From the NCBI GenBank assembly GCA_045561025.1, contig JBJKYM010000015.1:6599-70598 (forward strand): a DNA stretch of 64,000 nt. The letters are read 5' to 3'. Source of the stretch: Candidatus Rariloculaceae bacterium (GTDB lineage: Bacteria; Pseudomonadota; Gammaproteobacteria; Steroidobacterales; Rariloculaceae). Shown here one piece after another: positions 14,732 through 53,895 of the stretch. The notes under the pieces are model-generated. The model had not been told where the DNA came from and searched no databases. It was given only the letters and a program-made list of their open reading frames with translations. How positions within the stretch are numbered: the first letter of the stretch is position 1; each line of letters opens with the position of its first letter. A program made the translations under genes and the position numbers.

Positions 14732-16671
14732 GATTCGGCGAGTTCCTGTCGATCACGGAAGTAGTTCAGTGCGGTCGGATTCGCCAGCGCGTCGGTATTG
14801 CTGACTTCACGGCCGTGGAGAACGTCGCGAACAGCGAGTTCGACGATCTTGCCGTTGATCGTTCGTGGTATATCAGCGACTTCAAGTATCTTCGCCGGTA
14901 CGTGCTTCGGGCTCGCATTGGCGCGTACACTATCGCGTAGTCGATTTCGAAGATTCTCGTCGAAAATGTGTCCGGGCTGCAGGCGGACAAAAAGCACTAT
15001 GCGGACGTCGTCCTCCCAATCCTGACCGACCACGATGCTCTCGGCGATCTCGTCGAACTGTTCGACGACACGGTAAATTTCCGCCGTACCAATACGTACG
15101 CCGCCGGGATTCAGTACCGCATCCGAACGTCCATAGATAATGATGCCGTCATTTTCTGTGAGTTCCGCGTAGTCGCCCTGAGACCAGACTCCGGGGAAGC
15201 GTGAGAAATAGGCCGCGTGGTACTTACTGCCGTCCTCGTCGTTCCAGAACGCTAGCGGCATCGATGGAAAGGCCGCCGTACAGACCAGCTCGCCTTTCTC
15301 GCGGCGGACCGGGTAACCGTCACTATTATAGATTTCAGCCTTCATCCCCAGGGCTCGACACTGCAGCTCGCCCCGGTAGACCGGGAGGAGCGGATTTCCG
15401 GCGCCGAAACAGGCAATGATATCCGTGCCACCCGCCACCGACGAGAGCTGGAGGTCTTGCTTAATGTCCTCGTAGACGAAGTCGAAACTCGTCGGAGCCA
15501 GTGGCGAGCCCGTGGACAGAACGCTCTTTAGATGGTCGAGATTGACCCGTTCTCGTGGGCGGTAGCCGGCCTTTTCGAGCGCGCTCAGGTATTTTGCGCT
15601 TGTGCCGAATACTGTGACTTTCTCACGCTCAGCGATCTGCCAGAGCACTTCAGGACCGGGATGGAATGGTGAGCCATCGAAGAGCAACAACGTCGCACCG
15701 CTCGCGAGCCCGGAGACGAGCCAGTTCCACATCATCCAGCCGCAGGTCGTGAAATAGAACACGACGTCGCCAGGCTTCACGTCTGTATGAAGAACATGCT
15801 CCTTCTGGTGCTGAATCAGCGATGCGCCGGCGCTGTGAACGATGCACTTCGGGTTGCCCGTCGTGCCCGAGGAATACATGATGAACAGAGGGTGAGAAAA
15901 CGGCAGCGGTTCGAATACGAGCGGCGCATTGTCCGTGGAGAGCTCTCCAAACAATGTTGCGTCGGGAAATTCACTGAAGTCCGGTTCGTCCTCCATATAG
16001 GGAACGACAATCAACGCGCTCAAATTCGGCAGCTCGCGGGAAATCCTGCCTACCAGCGGTCGGGAGTCGATCGGTTTGCCGTTGTAGCTGTACCCGTCGG
16101 CTGCGAACAGCACCTTCGGCTCGATCTGACCGAAGCGATCGAGGACCCCCGCAGCACCGAAGTCAGGTGAACACGACGACCAGATTGCACCGATGCTCGC
16201 AGTCGCGAGCATTGCGACGATCGCTTCGGGACAGTTCGGGAGTAGCCCCGCCACGCGATCGTTCTTCTTTACCCCGAACGATCGCAGTGCCGCGGAGACA
16301 CTGGCGACCTGTTGCCGCAGTTCATCCCAGCCAAGTTCGACCCGGCGCCCGTTCTCGGCGTACGCGATGATCGCAGTGCCTTCGTATTCGGGGCGAAGCA
16401 GGTTGTCAGCATAGTTCAACCTGGCGCCGTTGAACCACTCGGCGCCCGGCATGCGTTGAGGATCGTCGAGTACGCTGGAGAAATCCGTTGTGGATCTGAT
16501 TCCGAGGTACCGCCAGGCTGCGGACCAGAACTCATCCGGCTTCTCGATACTCCAGCGATAGAGTCCGGTGTAGTCTGCGCTGTCGAGTTCGCCGCGGTGC
16601 CGCTCCAGAAACTCCTGCATATTGCTCGCGGCGATTCTCTGCGGCGAAGGCCGCCACATTGGCTCGGTCAT
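14728..16671 (-). CDS. acetoacetyl-CoA synthetase (acetoacetate-CoA ligase)
   Basis: 647 aa; AMP-binding motif [14 protein letters not shown]; N-terminus [18 protein letters not shown] typical of AACS. ATGA overlap with zapE. Confidence 0.85.
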
Positions 16672-16788
16672 ACAGGCGCCTCCGGGCGCTCGTCAGTCGT
16701 CGACAGGTGCACGATGTTACAATGACACTCCTTCCTACTACAGTCTTCTGCGTCCTTGTATACCTTTCGACGCCGAGAGAGGGAGTGC

Positions 16789-24478: not shown

Positions 24479-25474
24479 ATGATAAAAGCACGAGCAGCTA
24501 GATACTGGATCGGCACGCTGGCAGTGTTCATGGCCCTATCTTCATTCGCGCATCACGGCCCGCCGAATAACGTTCTCTACGATCTGGACAACATCGTAGA
24601 ACTCGAGGGAGAGGTCACCGAGCTCTTCTGGCGCAATCCCCACGTCCGTTTCAGAGTGCAGATCGACGGCAGCGATTCCGAGGTCTGGGGAATTGAATCG
24701 GGGCCGGTGACCTGGTTATTCCGGCTCGGCTGGACAGCCGACATCGTTTCAGTTGGCGATCATGTAAAAGTCGCAGGCTACGTTTCCAAGCGGCGCGCCA
24801 ACGAGATGGCTTTAACTAGTATGCTTTTACCCAGCGGACTAGAATTCACCGGCAGCGCCAGGCAGGGAGATCTGAGATTTTCTGACCAGCGTGTGGAAGT
24901 CGATCGGCAGGAGATTGCCGCCGCCGACAGGGAAGCGGCCATTCGCGAAGCCGACGGAATTTTTCGCGTCTGGGCATGGGGTGTGCGTGAGTTCGGCGGT
25001 GGTGGAACACCGGATAATGACGCCAGCGTCCTAACCGACGCTGCCCGAACCGCACGGGAGAATTTCGACATCGCTACGGACGAACCTTTTCTAAGTTGCA
25101 TTCAGGATGGAATGCCGCGGGCGATGTTTCATCCCTGTGTCATCGAATTCGTCGACGAGGGGGCTACGATCTCGTTCCGCAGCCACGAGCATGATATTCG
25201 GCGAACGATTCATATGTCGACAGACGTTGATGCTACGACGGTGTCACCAAGCTCGCTCGGTTACTCGGTAGGCGAATGGGACGGCGATACGCTTGTCGTA
25301 ACGACGACTCAGCTGAACTGGCATTTGTCGGACGAGATGGGTACGCCGCAGAGCCCGAATATGAGATTGCTCGAACGCTTCACGCCCGGCGCAAACGGTG
25401 AGCGGCTTGATTACGAGCTGACTTCATTCGACCCTGCTTATCTGACAGGGCCATCCGTGCGCACCGCGCATTAG
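24479..25474 (+). CDS. HH/NPH family member 1 (fused N+C domains), truncated by an in-frame TAG; full-length frame continues to 25540
   Basis: Signal peptide ...ALSSFA|HHGPP, WRNPH motif, C-domain motifs DGIFRVWAW, LSCIQDGMP, VGEWDGDTLVVTT. The TAG at 25472-25474 aligns with a Trp conserved in paralogs (GHWIWNPG / GVWIWLPG vs AH*MWVPG). The next 21 in-frame codons encode the conserved tail LELEPYEC. Confidence 0.8.
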   Translation: MIKARAARYWIGTLAVFMALSSFAHHGPPNNVLYDLDNIVELEGEVTELFWRNPHVRFRVQIDGSDSEVWGIESGPVTWLFRLGWTADIVSVGDHVKVAGYVSKRRANEMALTSMLLPSGLEFTGSARQGDLRFSDQRVEVDRQEIAAADREAAIREADGIFRVWAWGVREFGGGGTPDNDASVLTDAARTARENFDIATDEPFLSCIQDGMPRAMFHPCVIEFVDEGATISFRSHEHDIRRTIHMSTDVDATTVSPSSLGYSVGEWDGDTLVVTTTQLNWHLSDEMGTPQSPNMRLLERFTPGANGERLDYELTSFDPAYLTGPSVRTAH

Positions 25475-26617: not shown

Positions 26618-27079
26618 TTATTTCTCCAGAAAGTTCACGCGCTTTATCGTGTCGCTCGGCTCGATTCGTCCGATTGGTGTTGAGCTGTACGTCGAGGAAA
26701 TGACACGACCGTTGCCGCCGAGCATGAATTCCGAAGGCTGAATAATCCCGCGCTCGTCATTCCACCATGCGCCGATCATGTCGGCTTGCTCCCGTGTAAC
26801 GCTGTGGGCGATAGGAAAGCTGAGGTCCGCCTATACTTTCGCGGCCTCTTCCTGTGAGTCGACCGAAGCACCGATTACGGCCACGTTCAGTTTCTCGAGG
26901 TCCGCGCTGATAGCTTCGAAGCCGGCCAACTGCCGGCGATAGTAGGGTCACCAGTGGCCGCGATAGAACAGCAGAACGAGGTAGGGCGTTTCTATATCTA
27001 CGGGAATGGTTATCTGCCCGCCGTCGGTGAGGTTCAGCGTCGTCGTTGGAAACTGATCGCCCGCGTTAAGTTTATCCAT
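26618..27079 (-). pseudogene. peroxiredoxin-like (AhpC/TSA-redoxin) gene with TGA at the catalytic Cys position and a second in-frame TAG; candidate (ex-)selenoprotein
   Basis: My own minus-strand translation (not in the ORF track): MDKLNAGDQFPTTTLNLTDGGQITIPVDIETPYLVLLFYRGHW*PYYRRQLAGFEAISADLEKLNVAVIGASVDSQEEAAKV*ADLSFPIAH...GIIQPSEFMLGGNGRVISS. TGA at 26948-26950 sits where homologs have C in RGHWCPYC. TAG at 26831-26833. Confidence 0.65.
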
Positions 27080-32994: not shown

Positions 32995-33381
32995 ATGGAT
33001 GCTGCAGTGATACGCTCTGATCTGGAGAGCGAGTTCTATACACCGGAACGCTGCCATATCCTGGAGTTATCCAACTCTGAGGCAGATGAGGGCCTTTCGA
33101 TTGCGCAGGCCCGAGTTGAGCCGGGCGTAACAACCGCGCTACACAGGCTTAACGACACCGTCGAGCGTTACTATATTCTCAGCGGGCAAGGGTGAGTAGA
33201 GCTGGGTGAGAATCCCCCGGAAGCCGTCCGAGCCGGCGACGTTGTGCTGATACCCGCGGGTCTGCCGCAGTGCATCACTAACACCGGTCGTGACGATCTC
33301 GTATTCCTGGCGCTATGCACCCCGCGATTCCGGCCGGAGAACTACGAGGATTCAGAAGCTCTGAATACTCTAAGCCGGTAA
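32995..33381 (+). pseudogene. cupin-domain protein interrupted by one in-frame TGA
   Basis: MDAAVIRSDLESEFYTPERCHILEL...HRLNDTVERYYILSGQG*VELGENPPEAVRAGDVVLIPAGLPQCITNTGRDDLVFLALCTPRF. The TGA at 33193-33195 lies between the two cupin motifs and the same frame continues to TAA 33379-33381. Confidence 0.6.
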
Positions 33382-46655: not shown

Positions 46656-47267
46656 GTGAAGTTAAGAGAATATCTCGTTGCAGGCCTGGCCGTTCTGGGT
46701 CTTGCCGCATTCATACAGCCGCTTCAGGCGCAACCGAATCTGGACAATATGTTCCTCGATGAGGACACGGATTCCTTCGATCCGGGTCTTCGGATCGGGG
46801 CGGACTTTCCAGCGATTCGAGCGATCTCTGATGGGCAGGAAATAAACAATATCTAACAATTTTTCGGGGACAAAGGAGCGGTATTTCTTGCGATGCGCTC
46901 CGTTGACTGGTGACCCTTCTGTAGAGCGCAGCTCGGGCAGCTGCAGGATTACGTTGAGGCCTACGAAGAGGCTGAGGTTGGAATCGTCGTTATCACCTAT
47001 GACGCACCAGAGTTACAACAGGCATTTATCGACGCAGGTGACATCACGTATCCGTTTATCTCGGATGTAGATGCGGAAACCATGATCACCTTAGGTATTC
47101 TGAACGAGAATAATTCACCGGGAGAACCCGCTTACGGAATTCCTCATCCGGGCGTTTTCGTCGTGAATACCGACAATGAGATCGTCGGCAAGATATTTAT
47201 CGAGAGCTTTCGCGAGCGCGTCGATGGGCCTGGAACACTGCGTTACGCTCTGGAGGTTCTGGAGTAG
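46656..47267 (+). pseudogene. exported peroxiredoxin-like/redoxin gene with TGA at the first Cys of the WCPFC redox motif plus an upstream in-frame TAA; candidate (ex-)selenoprotein
   Basis: A single frame reads signal peptide MKLREYLVAGLAVLGLAAFIQPLQAQ...FPAIRAISDGQEINNI*QFFGDKGAVFLAMRSVDW*PFCRAQLGQLQDYVEAYEEAEVGIVVITYDAPELQQAFIDAGDITYPFISDVDAETMITLGILNE...GIPHPGVFVVNTDNEIVGKIF. TAA at 46854-46856, TGA at 46911-46913. Confidence 0.65.
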
Positions 47268-50476: not shown

Positions 50477-52507
50477 ATGCTCTGGATGGGCCTCGGGGAT
50501 AACAGTAAACCTGGCCGCGCAGGCGTCGTATTTCTCGCGATTACGGTCGCTTGCCTGCATGCGTTGCCGGCCACTGCTGAAGTCGTTCGTATCGATGTCG
50601 AGACACGCGGCGTCGTTGCTGATGGCAAAGCTTTCGGGCTGGCAGGCACGTACGAGCGGCTCGTCGGACGAATTCACTACGCCGTCGATCCGGCGAACGC
50701 TGCCAATCGGGTTGTCCGCGACATCGACTTTGCGCCGACCAACAGCGCGGGGCTGGTGGAGTTCTCTTCAGACTTCTATCTTCTGAAGCCCGTAGACGCG
50801 GCTGCAGGTAACGGCACCGTCTTCGTCGATGTCATGAATCGTGGCCGCAAGAGGGCGCTGGGCTATTTCAATCTCGCTCCGGCTTCGCTCGAGCCGGTAA
50901 CCGAGGCCGATCTCGGCGATGGTTTTCTGATGAACGAAGGCTTCTCGGTGCTTTATATCGGCTGGCAGTTCGATGCGCCGCAGCAAGAGAATTTCATGCG
51001 CGTATATCCACCGGTCGCGACTGACGATGGAGAGTCCTTCGAGGGACTGGTCCGCAGCGACTGGGTCGTCACCGAGCGAAGTTTCGATTATTCGCTCGGC
51101 GACCGAGGGCACGTTCCGTACGCGGTCGTCGATCCCGAGGATCCGCGCAACCAGCTTACCGTCCGCGACTCCGCGGCGAGTGAGCGCGAGGTAATACCGC
51201 GCGAGCAATGGCAGTTCGGACGAGTCGAAGACGGCCGCATGGTTGCGGACCCGACGCGTGTCTATCTGTCGACCGGGTTCGATCCTGGCAGGATCTATGA
51301 GGCTGTATTCGTTGCTGGCGACCCGCCGATCGCGGGGCTCGGGCTTGCGGCGATGCGTGACACGGTCTCGCATATGAAATACGACGCGGTGGAGGCTTTT
51401 GGCCTGCCATCCGGCGCAATCGAGCGAGCGATTACTTTCGGTGACTCCCAGGCCGGCCGTCTATTGCGTCACTTTCTGTATGACGGTTTCAATGTCGACG
51501 AACAGCAACGCATGGCGTTCGATGGTTTCATCCCGCACCTCGCGTCGAATGCGACGGGTAGCTTTAACCATCGCTTCGCACAACCCTCCCGCGCCGTAGA
51601 CAGAAGCTACTTCTATCCGGGCGACCAGTTCCCGTTCTCCGATGTTCTGCAGGAAGATCCGGTCACGGGTGTTGAGGACAGTTTGCTGGCTCGGCTGACT
51701 CCGGAGACGACTCCGAAAGTCTTCTACACGAATACATCGACGGAGTACTGGCGTTTACCGACGGCGCTTATCCATTCGACGCCCGATGGATCGCAGCATT
51801 TACCGCCGGCGGATACATCCAGAATCTACCTTTTTTCGGGAACCCAACACGTTCCGGCTCGGTTCCCGGAGAATCGGCTGGATGGGCTCCAGATCGGCAA
51901 TCCGAATAACTATCGCTGGTTTCTGCGTGCACTGTTACTCGCTCTGAACGACTGGATCGAGTATGGGACTCTGCCGCCGGCGAGCAGCTATCCAACATTA
52001 GAGGGCGGCACGCTCGCTGAGCTTGATGACATTCGCTTTCCCGTCATCCCCCGGGTGCGTTTGCCCAGCGAAGTCAGTCGCGCGTATCGCCTCGACTACG
52101 GCCCGCGATACATCTCAGAGGGAATCATCACGAATGAGCCGCCGATCGTGCATTCGGTATTTCCGTTTCTCGTCGCGCAGGTCGATGAGGGTGGCAACGA
52201 GATTGGCGGCTTGCGGTCGCCCGAGCATAGGGTACCGCTGGCGACCTATACCGGATGGAGTCCGTTCAACCCGATCTCGACGCCCGGTTCCTACATTCCA
52301 TTTTCGAGAACCCGCGCTGATCGGGAAGCTGCCGGCGACGAGAGGCCATCGATAGAAGAACTGTACGCAGGTCGTGAGCAATACCTCGGGCTCGTCGCAT
52401 CGGCGGGGCTGGAGCTGATCGAGTCGGGTTACATTCTTCCGCAGGATCTTCCCGCGATCCTCACGGATGCCGGTAGTCACTGGGACTTTCTTATGTCTGG
52501 AAACTGA
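50477..52507 (+). CDS. large exported protein, alpha/beta-hydrolase-like hypothetical family
   Basis: ATG 50477 after an AGGAAGGGAG RBS; signal region VVFLAITVACLHALPATAEV. N-terminal text AFGLAGTYERLVGRIHYAVDPANAANRVVRDIDFAP...VEFSSDFYLLKP...GNGTVFVDVMNRGRK resembles conserved 650-aa alpha/beta-hydrolase-domain hypotheticals as I recall them. Function unknown. Confidence 0.6.
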   Translation: MLWMGLGDNSKPGRAGVVFLAITVACLHALPATAEVVRIDVETRGVVADGKAFGLAGTYERLVGRIHYAVDPANAANRVVRDIDFAPTNSAGLVEFSSDFYLLKPVDAAAGNGTVFVDVMNRGRKRALGYFNLAPASLEPVTEADLGDGFLMNEGFSVLYIGWQFDAPQQENFMRVYPPVATDDGESFEGLVRSDWVVTERSFDYSLGDRGHVPYAVVDPEDPRNQLTVRDSAASEREVIPREQWQFGRVEDGRMVADPTRVYLSTGFDPGRIYEAVFVAGDPPIAGLGLAAMRDTVSHMKYDAVEAFGLPSGAIERAITFGDSQAGRLLRHFLYDGFNVDEQQRMAFDGFIPHLASNATGSFNHRFAQPSRAVDRSYFYPGDQFPFSDVLQEDPVTGVEDSLLARLTPETTPKVFYTNTSTEYWRLPTALIHSTPDGSQHLPPADTSRIYLFSGTQHVPARFPENRLDGLQIGNPNNYRWFLRALLLALNDWIEYGTLPPASSYPTLEGGTLAELDDIRFPVIPRVRLPSEVSRAYRLDYGPRYISEGIITNEPPIVHSVFPFLVAQVDEGGNEIGGLRSPEHRVPLATYTGWSPFNPISTPGSYIPFSRTRADREAAGDERPSIEELYAGREQYLGLVASAGLELIESGYILPQDLPAILTDAGSHWDFLMSGN

Positions 52508-52530: not shown

Positions 52531-53895
52531 ATGTCACGATCCAAGATTCGAGTCGCTCAATTTCTGGCAGCCACCACGCTGACGATTTTTGCCAGTGGCG
52601 GTTTCGGTTATCCGTCGATCTACCCGACGGGGACGACGATCTACGATCCGGACAGGGCGTGGAACGGCTACACGATTCATCCGACGCCAGAGGGCAAGGG
52701 CGCCGTCCTGATAGATATGAACGGTAACGTTATCCGGCGATTTGCTGAGTTCACCAGTTCGCCGATCAGGATCATGCCAGGTGGCTATATCATGGGCGGC
52801 AGCGGTGAGGCAGTCGTACAACTGGACTGGGATGGCAACGAGGTCTGGCGGTTCGATCGCACGGAGCAGATCGAAGACGAGGATGGCAACAGGATCTGGT
52901 CGGCCCGTCAGCATCACGATTGGCAACGCGAGGGGAGTCCGGCCGGTTATTACTCGCCTGACTCGGCACCCGAGCAGACGAGCGGCCGGACACTGATACT
53001 CGCGTTCAGGAATCTGACCGTCCCGGAGATCAGCGACAAGCGTCTGCGTGACGACTATTTTCTGGAGGTGTCGTGGGATGGCGAGATTCTTTGGGACTGG
53101 ACCTTAAGCGATCATGTCGATGAGCTTGGCCTCTCGGAAGCTGCCCGGAATGCCATATACCGTCATCCTGGCTGGAACGAGGGAACTCAGAGCGCAGACT
53201 GGATGCACATCAACTCGCTGTCCTACATCGGACCGAATCGTTGGTACGACGACGGCGATGAGCGTTTCCACCCGGACAATGTGATATTCAGCAGTCGATC
53301 CGCGAACATCGTCGCAATCGTCAGCCGCTCGGGCAATATCGTCTGGCGTGTGGGCCCCGACTACCGCGAGACCAGGGAGATGCGCGAGATCGGTCAGGTC
53401 ATTGGTTAGCATCACCCACATATGATTCCTGAAGGGCTACCGGGCGCGGGCAATATCATGGTCTTCGACAACGGTGGGGGCGCCGGCTTCGGCGAGTCGA
53501 ATCCGTTCGCGCCCGACGGTCGTTTTATCGTCGAGCGTTACAGTTCGCGGGTGCTCGAGATCGATCCAGTGACGATGGAGAAGGTCTGGGAGTACTCAAT
53601 TCAGGGGCACGGTCGCTTTCACTTCTTCAGTCACAACGTCAGCATGGCGCAGCGGCTACCTAACGGTAATACGCTTATCACCGAAGGGGCAGCCGGTCGG
53701 GTATTCGAGGTCACCGTAGAAGGCGAGATTGTTTGGGAGTACCTCAATCCATTCTTCTACGAGCCGGACGATACGCGACACAATATTTATCGCGCCTATC
53801 GCGTGCCTTACGATTGGATTCCACAGCTTACTCCGCCCGAGGAGCGCGCTGTCGTGCCGCCGCACCCGAGCGAATTTCGGATCGAACCGCAATGA
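52531..53895 (+). pseudogene. arylsulfotransferase (ASST)-like beta-propeller gene interrupted by one in-frame TAG
   Basis: ORFs 52531-53409 and 53422-53895 are in one frame: ...EMREIGQVIG*HHPHMIPEGLPGAGNIMVFDNGGGAGFG.... N-terminus TTIYDPDRAWNGYTIH and HINSLSY are ASST-like. TAG at 53407-53409. Confidence 0.65.

Follow-up and report, generated by a model that had tools for sequence, protein, structure and literature searches.

The closest described systems are the Prx-like thiol:disulfide oxidoreductase selenoproteins, in which the AhpC/TSA domain carries a UxxC or UxxU active site. The Sargasso Sea selenoproteome includes 22 sequences of such a "Prx-like protein" (PMC1088965), the GOS analysis lists 225 sequences as "Prx-like 1" (PMC2398784), and a 2022 review gives the Prx-like family as "predicted" (PMC9312934). 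The UxxC Prx-like proteins are kept apart in the literature from the TxxU peroxiredoxins (PMC1088965, PMC2398784). The hallmarks of a bacterial SECIS element are its location immediately 3' of the UGA, within the coding region, and a small apical loop that contains G (PMC1088965). Loss of selenoproteins is mostly inferred from patterns of presence and absence (PMC1794560). The locus described here is very probably a recently inactivated ortholog of a conserved U-x-x-C Prx-like selenoprotein.

This locus is found in a 64,000-nucleotide stretch of DNA (the window) from a Candidatus Rariloculaceae bacterium, a marine gammaproteobacterium that is uncultured, on contig C15 of an assembly of 1.84 Mb in 36 contigs that is 57% complete. 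The preliminary description, made from the letters of the window alone, had proposed a minus-strand AhpC/TSA-like gene of 153 codons. Translation of positions 26618 to 27079 bears this out, with an ATG start at 27079 and a terminal TAA at 26618-26620, and the read-through product matches the Pfam AhpC-TSA domain (Pfam ID PF00578) at residues 7 to 126, with an E value of 2.3e-17 and a score of 63.5 bits (cut-off, 26). From 27079 to 26618, the frame starts with MDKLN, passes through FYRGHW-TGA-PYY and AAKV-TAG-ADLSFPI, and ends with FLEK-TAA; in full it reads MDKLNAGDQFPTTTLNLTDGGQITIPVDIETPYLVLLFYRGHW-TGA-PYYRRQLAGFEAISADLEKLNVAVIGASVDSQEEAAKV-TAG-ADLSFPIAHSV...RVNFLEK-TAA. The TGA, Tyr codon, TAG, and hairpin that had been pointed out there are all present in the sequence as claimed. 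The TGA is codon 44 (26948-26950, minus strand) and occupies the first position of the U-x-x-C motif; the TAT codon (26939-26941, minus strand) places Tyr where the partner Cys (TGY) is expected, by a G>A transition; and the premature TAG (26831-26833, minus strand) is codon 83, 39 codons past the TGA, and cuts the protein to 82 residues. The TGG-TGA-CCC context that the description had found in common with another gene of the window (46656-47267) is indeed identical in sequence. It reflects only the W-U-P protein motif, because the Pro codon after the TGA differs among the orthologs (CCC, CCT, CCG, or CCA).

Six-frame searches of 60 related genomes yield 9 orthologs of this gene (48 to 70% identity), each with one TGA and zero other stops. 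A scan of species-representative genomes retrieves 154 relatives. The motif could be located in 78 of the best 80 of these and reads [FL]YRGHW-TGA-P[YFH]-Cys, followed by 110 to 118 open codons. A whole-protein scan of metagenome contigs found no same-species copy, yet it yielded 12 further Sec-type orthologs and, as comparators, 67 Cys-type homologs with TGC or TGT. The 78 genomic and 12 metagenomic Sec-type sequences make up the 90 close orthologs referred to below; with the 67 Cys-type sequences, they are the 157 homologs examined. The hosts of the Sec-type orthologs belong to the Alpha-, Beta-, and Gammaproteobacteria, with one Gemmatimonadaceae MAG (Gemmatimonadota). Codon 44 is TGA in all 90 close orthologs, none of which has a second in-frame stop, and in that column, the one that opens the redox motif, the 67 homologs of greater distance have a Cys codon (TGC/TGT). 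Such a pattern (90 of 90 orthologs) is far beyond chance. Because the orthologs uniformly have TGA in an otherwise open frame, the TGA of the window copy is predicted to be a genuine, ancestral selenocysteine codon of a conserved U-x-x-C family and not a new lesion.

The source genome also encodes the machinery for Sec decoding, all four components of which score above curated thresholds. The genes selD (286.8 bits), selA (578.7 bits), and selB (344 bits) are on contig C8. The tRNA-Sec gene (selC; UCA anticodon, with 82.8 bits where the gathering score is 47) adjoins selB and selA on the same contig. SelD itself (C8:135566-137821, plus strand) is a 751-aa fusion of an Ndh-like Pyr_redox_2 domain with the AIRS/AIRS_C SelD core and is of the Cys type, with CGGCGAK at the Sec/Cys site; this Ndh-SelD architecture has been described in the GOS selenoproteome paper (PMC2398784). 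The preliminary description had suspected Sec usage or Sec ancestry, and the sel genes, the TGA found throughout the close orthologs, and the covarying hairpin described below agree with it. It had also considered that both TGA-containing genes might be simple pseudogenes with Cys-carrying orthologs, in a genome lacking selABCD; the orthologs carry TGA, and selA, selB, selC, and selD are all present. The "two independent Cys-to-TGA changes" from which it had argued did not hold up, as neither TGA appears to be new and each goes back to a Sec codon that is ancestral in the selenoprotein family concerned.

The hairpin 3' of the TGA (26921-26937, minus strand) is GCCGGC-AGUUG-GCCGGC, a 6-bp stem with a 5-nt loop. 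The stem begins 10 nt and the loop 16 nt past the UGA, inside the coding sequence. In an alignment of 79 sequences (columns 20 to 36), the stem is paired in 96.6% of the cells, and the window copy is perfect, with 6 pairs of 6. Compensatory changes occur in three of the six pairs among these 79 sequences: columns 21/35 combine as CG (59), GC (9), and UA (3), columns 24/32 as GC (30), GU (18), AU (12), UA (4), and UG (3), and columns 20/36 show one compensatory UA. Both sides are changed in 32 cells, which, in related sequences whose stem overlaps conserved codons (RRQLAG), do not count independent events; the observed score is reached by none of 500 shuffles. When the 3' partner columns are slid by 1 to 3, pairing falls to 6 to 55%. 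The loop, AGUUG in the window, is AGUUR without exception in the 79 sequences, and its Leu codon is always TTR, against a background of 57% G+C. The Cys-type homologs form 0 to 4 of the 6 pairs (mostly 3; n = 67), versus 4 to 6 in the Sec-type sequences. A restriction of the palindrome to TGA-containing homologs, raised earlier as something to look for, is thus what the alignments contain: the hairpin covaries in the TGA-type sequences and is not formed in the 67 Cys-type ones. The window hairpin has the location and the apical loop described for bacterial SECIS elements (PMC1088965), together with covariation specific to the Sec-type genes, and is predicted to be a SECIS element. Searches against the Rfam families, which are uninformative for short bacterial SECIS elements, give no match in the region. 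Through the stem, the third base of an Arg codon (CGC/CGG/CGT) is coupled to a residue encoded by the opposite arm (GGC for Gly, GCC for Ala, or GAC for Asp), and the predicted RNA structure visibly shapes the protein sequence RRQL[AV][GAD]. The family alignment thus offers a clean example of a SECIS stem that would constrain synonymous Arg codons as well as the identity of a downstream residue (Gly, Ala, or Asp).

Known peroxiredoxins share the motif PxxxTxxC. The solved structures closest to the protein are those of Bcp (3hjp) and Prx2 (1qmv), with weak sequence similarity (E value of about 6e-5). In the alignment to Bcp, the Sec residue falls on the Thr of the TxxC motif, and the lost Cys is at the peroxidatic position. 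This refines the earlier placement of the TGA at the catalytic Cys: matched to the Thr of the peroxiredoxin T-x-x-C, the TGA takes the N-terminal, thioredoxin-like position of a C-x-x-C motif. Because this layout of the active site differs from that of the peroxiredoxins, thiol-disulfide chemistry of a thioredoxin-like kind would be expected of the intact protein, not chemistry of the 2-Cys Prx kind.

Two changes set the window copy apart from its relatives. The residue at +3 from the Sec codon is Cys in all 157 homologs examined and Tyr (TAT) in the window alone. Codon 83, TAG in the window, is CAG or CAA (Gln) in eight of nine orthologs and CTG in the closest one; most simply, the TAG would derive from CAG by a C>T transition, the ancestral codon being inferred and that of the closest ortholog being CTG. 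Elsewhere, the gene is well preserved. In a leave-one-out comparison of the 49 columns that are invariant in the other nine sequences, the window has a single private change, the replacement of Cys by Tyr, and the intact orthologs have 0 to 3. Conservation reaches 95% or more in 39 columns of the 79-sequence alignment; the window copy deviates at three of these, and two of the three deviations recur in the intact gene of the congener G007. The start codon, the Sec codon, and the SECIS are unaltered, and the remainder of the gene, including the part 3' of the TAG, has no further decay. Because these elements and the other conserved residues are unchanged, the inactivation appears to be recent. 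By sequence logic, the window copy is predicted to be inactive, as had been proposed from the TAG and the Cys-to-Tyr change; both changes are found only here among the 157 homologs and recur in independent assemblies. The alignment with homologs that had been suggested as a means of dating the lesions likewise points to recent lesions and an ancestral TGA. No intact second copy was found in the assembled part of the 57%-complete genome, which gives one match. In terms of UxxC/UxxU family membership, the window copy has Tyr at the +3 position, where the family has Cys or Sec and the ancestral gene would have had Cys, and its frame is closed by TAG83 in addition to the Sec codon. Because the partner Cys and the open frame are lost, the locus is classed among the pseudogenes of the family and not among its functional members.

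The lesions recur outside the source assembly. An exact-match look-up of the protein encoded by the adjacent rhodanese gene retrieves nine contigs, five of which were compared: three from Logan assemblies (ERR9649086, ERR9649110, and SRR8503608) and two from ENA (ERZ23491103 and ERZ909414; marine metagenome). All five, which stem from three or more projects, match the window letter for letter over the Prx-like gene. The TGA and the TAT occur in 5 of 5, and the TAG occurs in the 4 of 4 that reach the end of codon 83; the fifth ends on its T. The fifth contig has mismatches at 5 of 1805 other positions (99.7% identity) and because of these is taken as another strain. Gene callers report fragments of 43 and 53 aa at the Prx-like gene on the independent contigs. 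At the level of assemblies, the pseudogene lesions thus appear to be fixed in a natural marine population. A metagenome scan with a degenerate pattern for AAKV-x-ADLSFPIA found nothing.

The gene at 46656-47267 (plus strand) encodes a second U-x-x-C redoxin selenoprotein, predicted to be exported, with the motif VDW-U-PFC. It resembles the Prx-like gene in the AhpC/TSA fold, in the W-U-P-x-C motif, and in having one extra stop in the source organism only, but it has a signal peptide, belongs to another subfamily, and is too distant to be retrieved in the Prx-like protein search. Its TGA is kept in 7 of 7 orthologs, each of which has this one TGA only. The additional TAA of the window copy is 5' of the Sec codon, and its alignment to GAA/GAY makes it a G>T transversion; the partner Cys is kept. 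Gene calls on 10 independent contigs give the truncated product of 66 aa, and one independent contig of 88.8 kb bears both the broken Prx-like gene and the truncated second redoxin. Single stops also interrupt a cupin gene (TGA at 33193) and an arylsulfotransferase gene (TAG at 53407), in both cases inside a conserved region, and a DUF6152a gene (TAG at 25472), at a conserved Trp. Two apparent stops in the gene at 14734-16728 were dismissed, as they lie upstream of its true start. The housekeeping part of the window (0 to 24 kb) has zero lesions in comparison with the congener G007; contig C93 of the latter is not syntenic with the right half of the window.

A genome-wide codon-usage scan for in-frame stops returned 627 candidates, the majority of them neighbouring genes or antisense frames, and selected ones were checked singly. 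Among them are at least three other full-length genes of the source genome that have one in-frame TGA each, within a redox motif, and are apparently intact. Two (C8:150094, beside the sel cluster, and C36:5688, both on the minus strand) encode proteins of about 350 to 400 aa with the deiodinase-like motif GC[FL]T-U-PP[FY], and the third (C31:25047, plus strand) encodes a redoxin-DsbD_N fusion with a signal peptide and the motif W-U-PFC. The hairpins 3' of both GC[FL]T-U-PP[FY] TGAs also have AGUU in the loop region.

That the TGA might itself be a plain nonsense mutation, the Cys codon of a Cys-type gene having become one of three lesions with no Sec involved, is suggested by the single base change that separates TGY from TGA and by the fact that the gene is demonstrably a pseudogene anyway. 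The distribution of the codon contradicts this: TGA is at position 44 of all 90 close orthologs, in three proteobacterial classes and Gemmatimonadota and in otherwise open frames, the covarying hairpin follows it in the TGA forms only, and the genome has the complete Sec machinery. The ortholog survey rules this origin out, and its probability is practically negligible. Continued function is another reading of the preserved sequence, with UAG83 read through or recoded (by pyrrolysine, a suppressor tRNA, or leakiness) and Sec working without the partner Cys; it would account for the intact start, Sec codon, and SECIS and for the undecayed sequence past the TAG, and, with the genome 57% complete, a suppressor may be missing from the assembly. 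However, TAG is the joint-commonest stop of long open reading frames (687 of 1796), no PylS match and no tRNA with the CUA anticodon (among 22 tRNAs detected) are found in this 57%-complete genome, and reassignment of TAG, to pyrrolysine or otherwise, is ruled out on these three grounds. Moreover, none of the 90 orthologs has TAG at this position, the invariant partner Cys is lost too, and similar nonsense lesions, with different stop codons, are found in other genes of the window. A functional gene is, accordingly, very unlikely.

The TAG and the TAT could also be assembly or sequencing errors of the MAG, in which case the real gene would be that of an intact selenoprotein. There is at least one place in the same assembly where an error or a rare variant is probable, namely mutL, which is outside the window and frameshifted at C34:~50712 (region C34:~50700-50720); it reads CAGGCGGTGGG, a 1-nt deletion relative to the CAGGCCGGTGGG of two independent assemblies. 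Those two, ERR9649086 and ERR9649098, contain the C that is lacking here, encode an intact MutL of 587 aa, and are otherwise 100% identical over 4.8 to 6.2 kb. For the Prx-like gene, however, the sequence is identical over the gene in the five independent assemblies, which come from three or more projects and one of which is of a slightly divergent strain, the same 43-aa and 53-aa fragments are called on those contigs, and the differing run and project accessions argue against one shared erroneous read set. The independent assemblies rule out an artefact at the TAG and TAT, which makes error an extremely improbable explanation. The mutL frameshift bears as well on the idea that the lesions are a by-product of a hypermutator lineage that has lost mismatch repair, an idea with which the C:G>T:A transitions at both lesions of the Prx-like gene and the several broken genes of the window would agree. 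Against it, ERR9649086 holds the broken Prx-like gene together with an intact mutL, which rules out a mutator for that population; the TAA of the second redoxin, from GAA/GAY, is a transversion, which rules out a transition-only spectrum; and about 24 kb of housekeeping genes are without lesion relative to the congener G007. A mutator origin is thus highly improbable, and the mutL frameshift is probably an assembly error or a rare variant and not the mark of a mismatch-repair-deficient strain. In a comparison of ENA scaffold_15515 (ERZ23491103) with the MAG, 13 mismatches and 16 gap positions are seen over 5 kb, and mutL and hflX are both split, which suggests that the assembly of that data set is locally of poor quality.

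Recent inactivation of an ancestral selenoprotein gene can be compared with the state of the locus in related genomes. One contig of the congener G007 has the same gene order as the window, and on it the Prx-like gene is intact and also follows genes for a DUF4159 protein and a rhodanese. An operon link with this pair is unsupported family-wide, the adjacency being present in 1 of 80 loci, that of G007 only; no neighbour is conserved across the family in the best 80 of the 154 loci. A gene for a SelB-like GTPase (elongation factor) adjoins the Prx-like gene in about 11 of the 80, and in 16 or 17 other loci, all of one clade, two small conserved genes are directly upstream, one of which has a 254-aa product with a CxxC motif. 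Within the genus, the distribution is patchy. The Prx-like gene is present in 3 of 7 other genomes, and a six-frame search did not find it in three same-genus genomes that are 95 to 97% complete. The congener G004 (G004:C4:60513-64343) keeps the DUF4159-rhodanese pair, and the slot downstream of it has no Prx-like gene; the locus is variable within the genus, as this slot demonstrates. The slot contains a 44-aa open reading frame, transposase-like by its look and with no Pfam hit, and then a convergent DsbC-like gene.

In the intact relatives, as inferred from the family, UGA44 would be decoded as Sec by SelB and Sec-tRNA(Sec), recruited by the SECIS with its 6-bp stem and 5-nt loop 10 nt downstream, and the Sec would form a redox pair with the Cys three residues on. 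In the window copy, two single-base changes would have destroyed the gene, one turning the partner Cys codon into TAT and the other codon 83 into TAG. Even with Sec insertion, translation would stop after 82 residues, about half of the fold, and the product would have no partner Cys. These lesions fall within a local cluster of accessory genes that are broken, the second U-x-x-C redoxin among them; the Sec machinery and at least three selenoprotein genes appear intact.

Two different U-x-x-C genes have been knocked out independently by nonsense mutations, neither being converted to the Cys form, and the knock-outs are seen across samples. It is conceivable, although rather doubtful, that this marine Rariloculaceae-related lineage is under selection to lose U-x-x-C redoxin selenoproteins, or at least tolerates their loss, for example under selenium scarcity or in a changed redox niche. 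If so, the locus would be a directly observable intermediate in the contraction of the selenoproteome of a free-living aerobe, one that would retain its Sec machinery for the two genes with the deiodinase-like motif and the redoxin-DsbD_N fusion. The stage visible here would be one in which a wild population has fixed no more than two point lesions, the Sec codon and the SECIS have stayed perfect, and a second selenoprotein gene has been lost in parallel 20 kb away. Selenoprotein specialists will find nothing unexpected in it: it is an ordinary, if tidy, example of a selenoprotein in the course of being lost. In annotations, the proper label is selenoprotein pseudogene, in place of a blank or of two or three small open reading frames. 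The approximately 90 intact orthologs are cut at the TGA by standard gene callers and ought to be entered as Prx-like oxidoreductases that contain Sec.

Compared with known systems, the family to which the window copy belongs matches, in its predicted features, the Prx-like thiol:disulfide oxidoreductase selenoproteins (pfam00578, UxxC/UxxU), an assignment made by defining features and not by alignment to published reference sequences. The AhpC/TSA domain (PF00578), Sec as the first residue of U-x-x-C and not in T-x-x-U, and a SECIS directly 3' of the UGA are shared with that family, which is widespread in marine and other environmental Proteobacteria and has many Cys homologs. Unlike its members, the window copy has U-x-x-Y and a premature TAG. 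The Cys-type homologs from soil and marine metagenomes, FYRGHW-C-P[YF]-C proteins with 34 to 46% identity, share its length, fold, and flanking motif but have TGC or TGT in place of TGA, and the hairpin is not formed. Typical peroxiredoxins (Sec-Prx with T-x-x-U, Bcp/PrxQ) have the thioredoxin/AhpC-TSA fold in common with the Prx-like protein, whereas the motif here is W-U-P-Y-[C>Y], with Sec where peroxiredoxins have a conserved Thr and without the peroxidatic Cys that follows this Thr in their motif.
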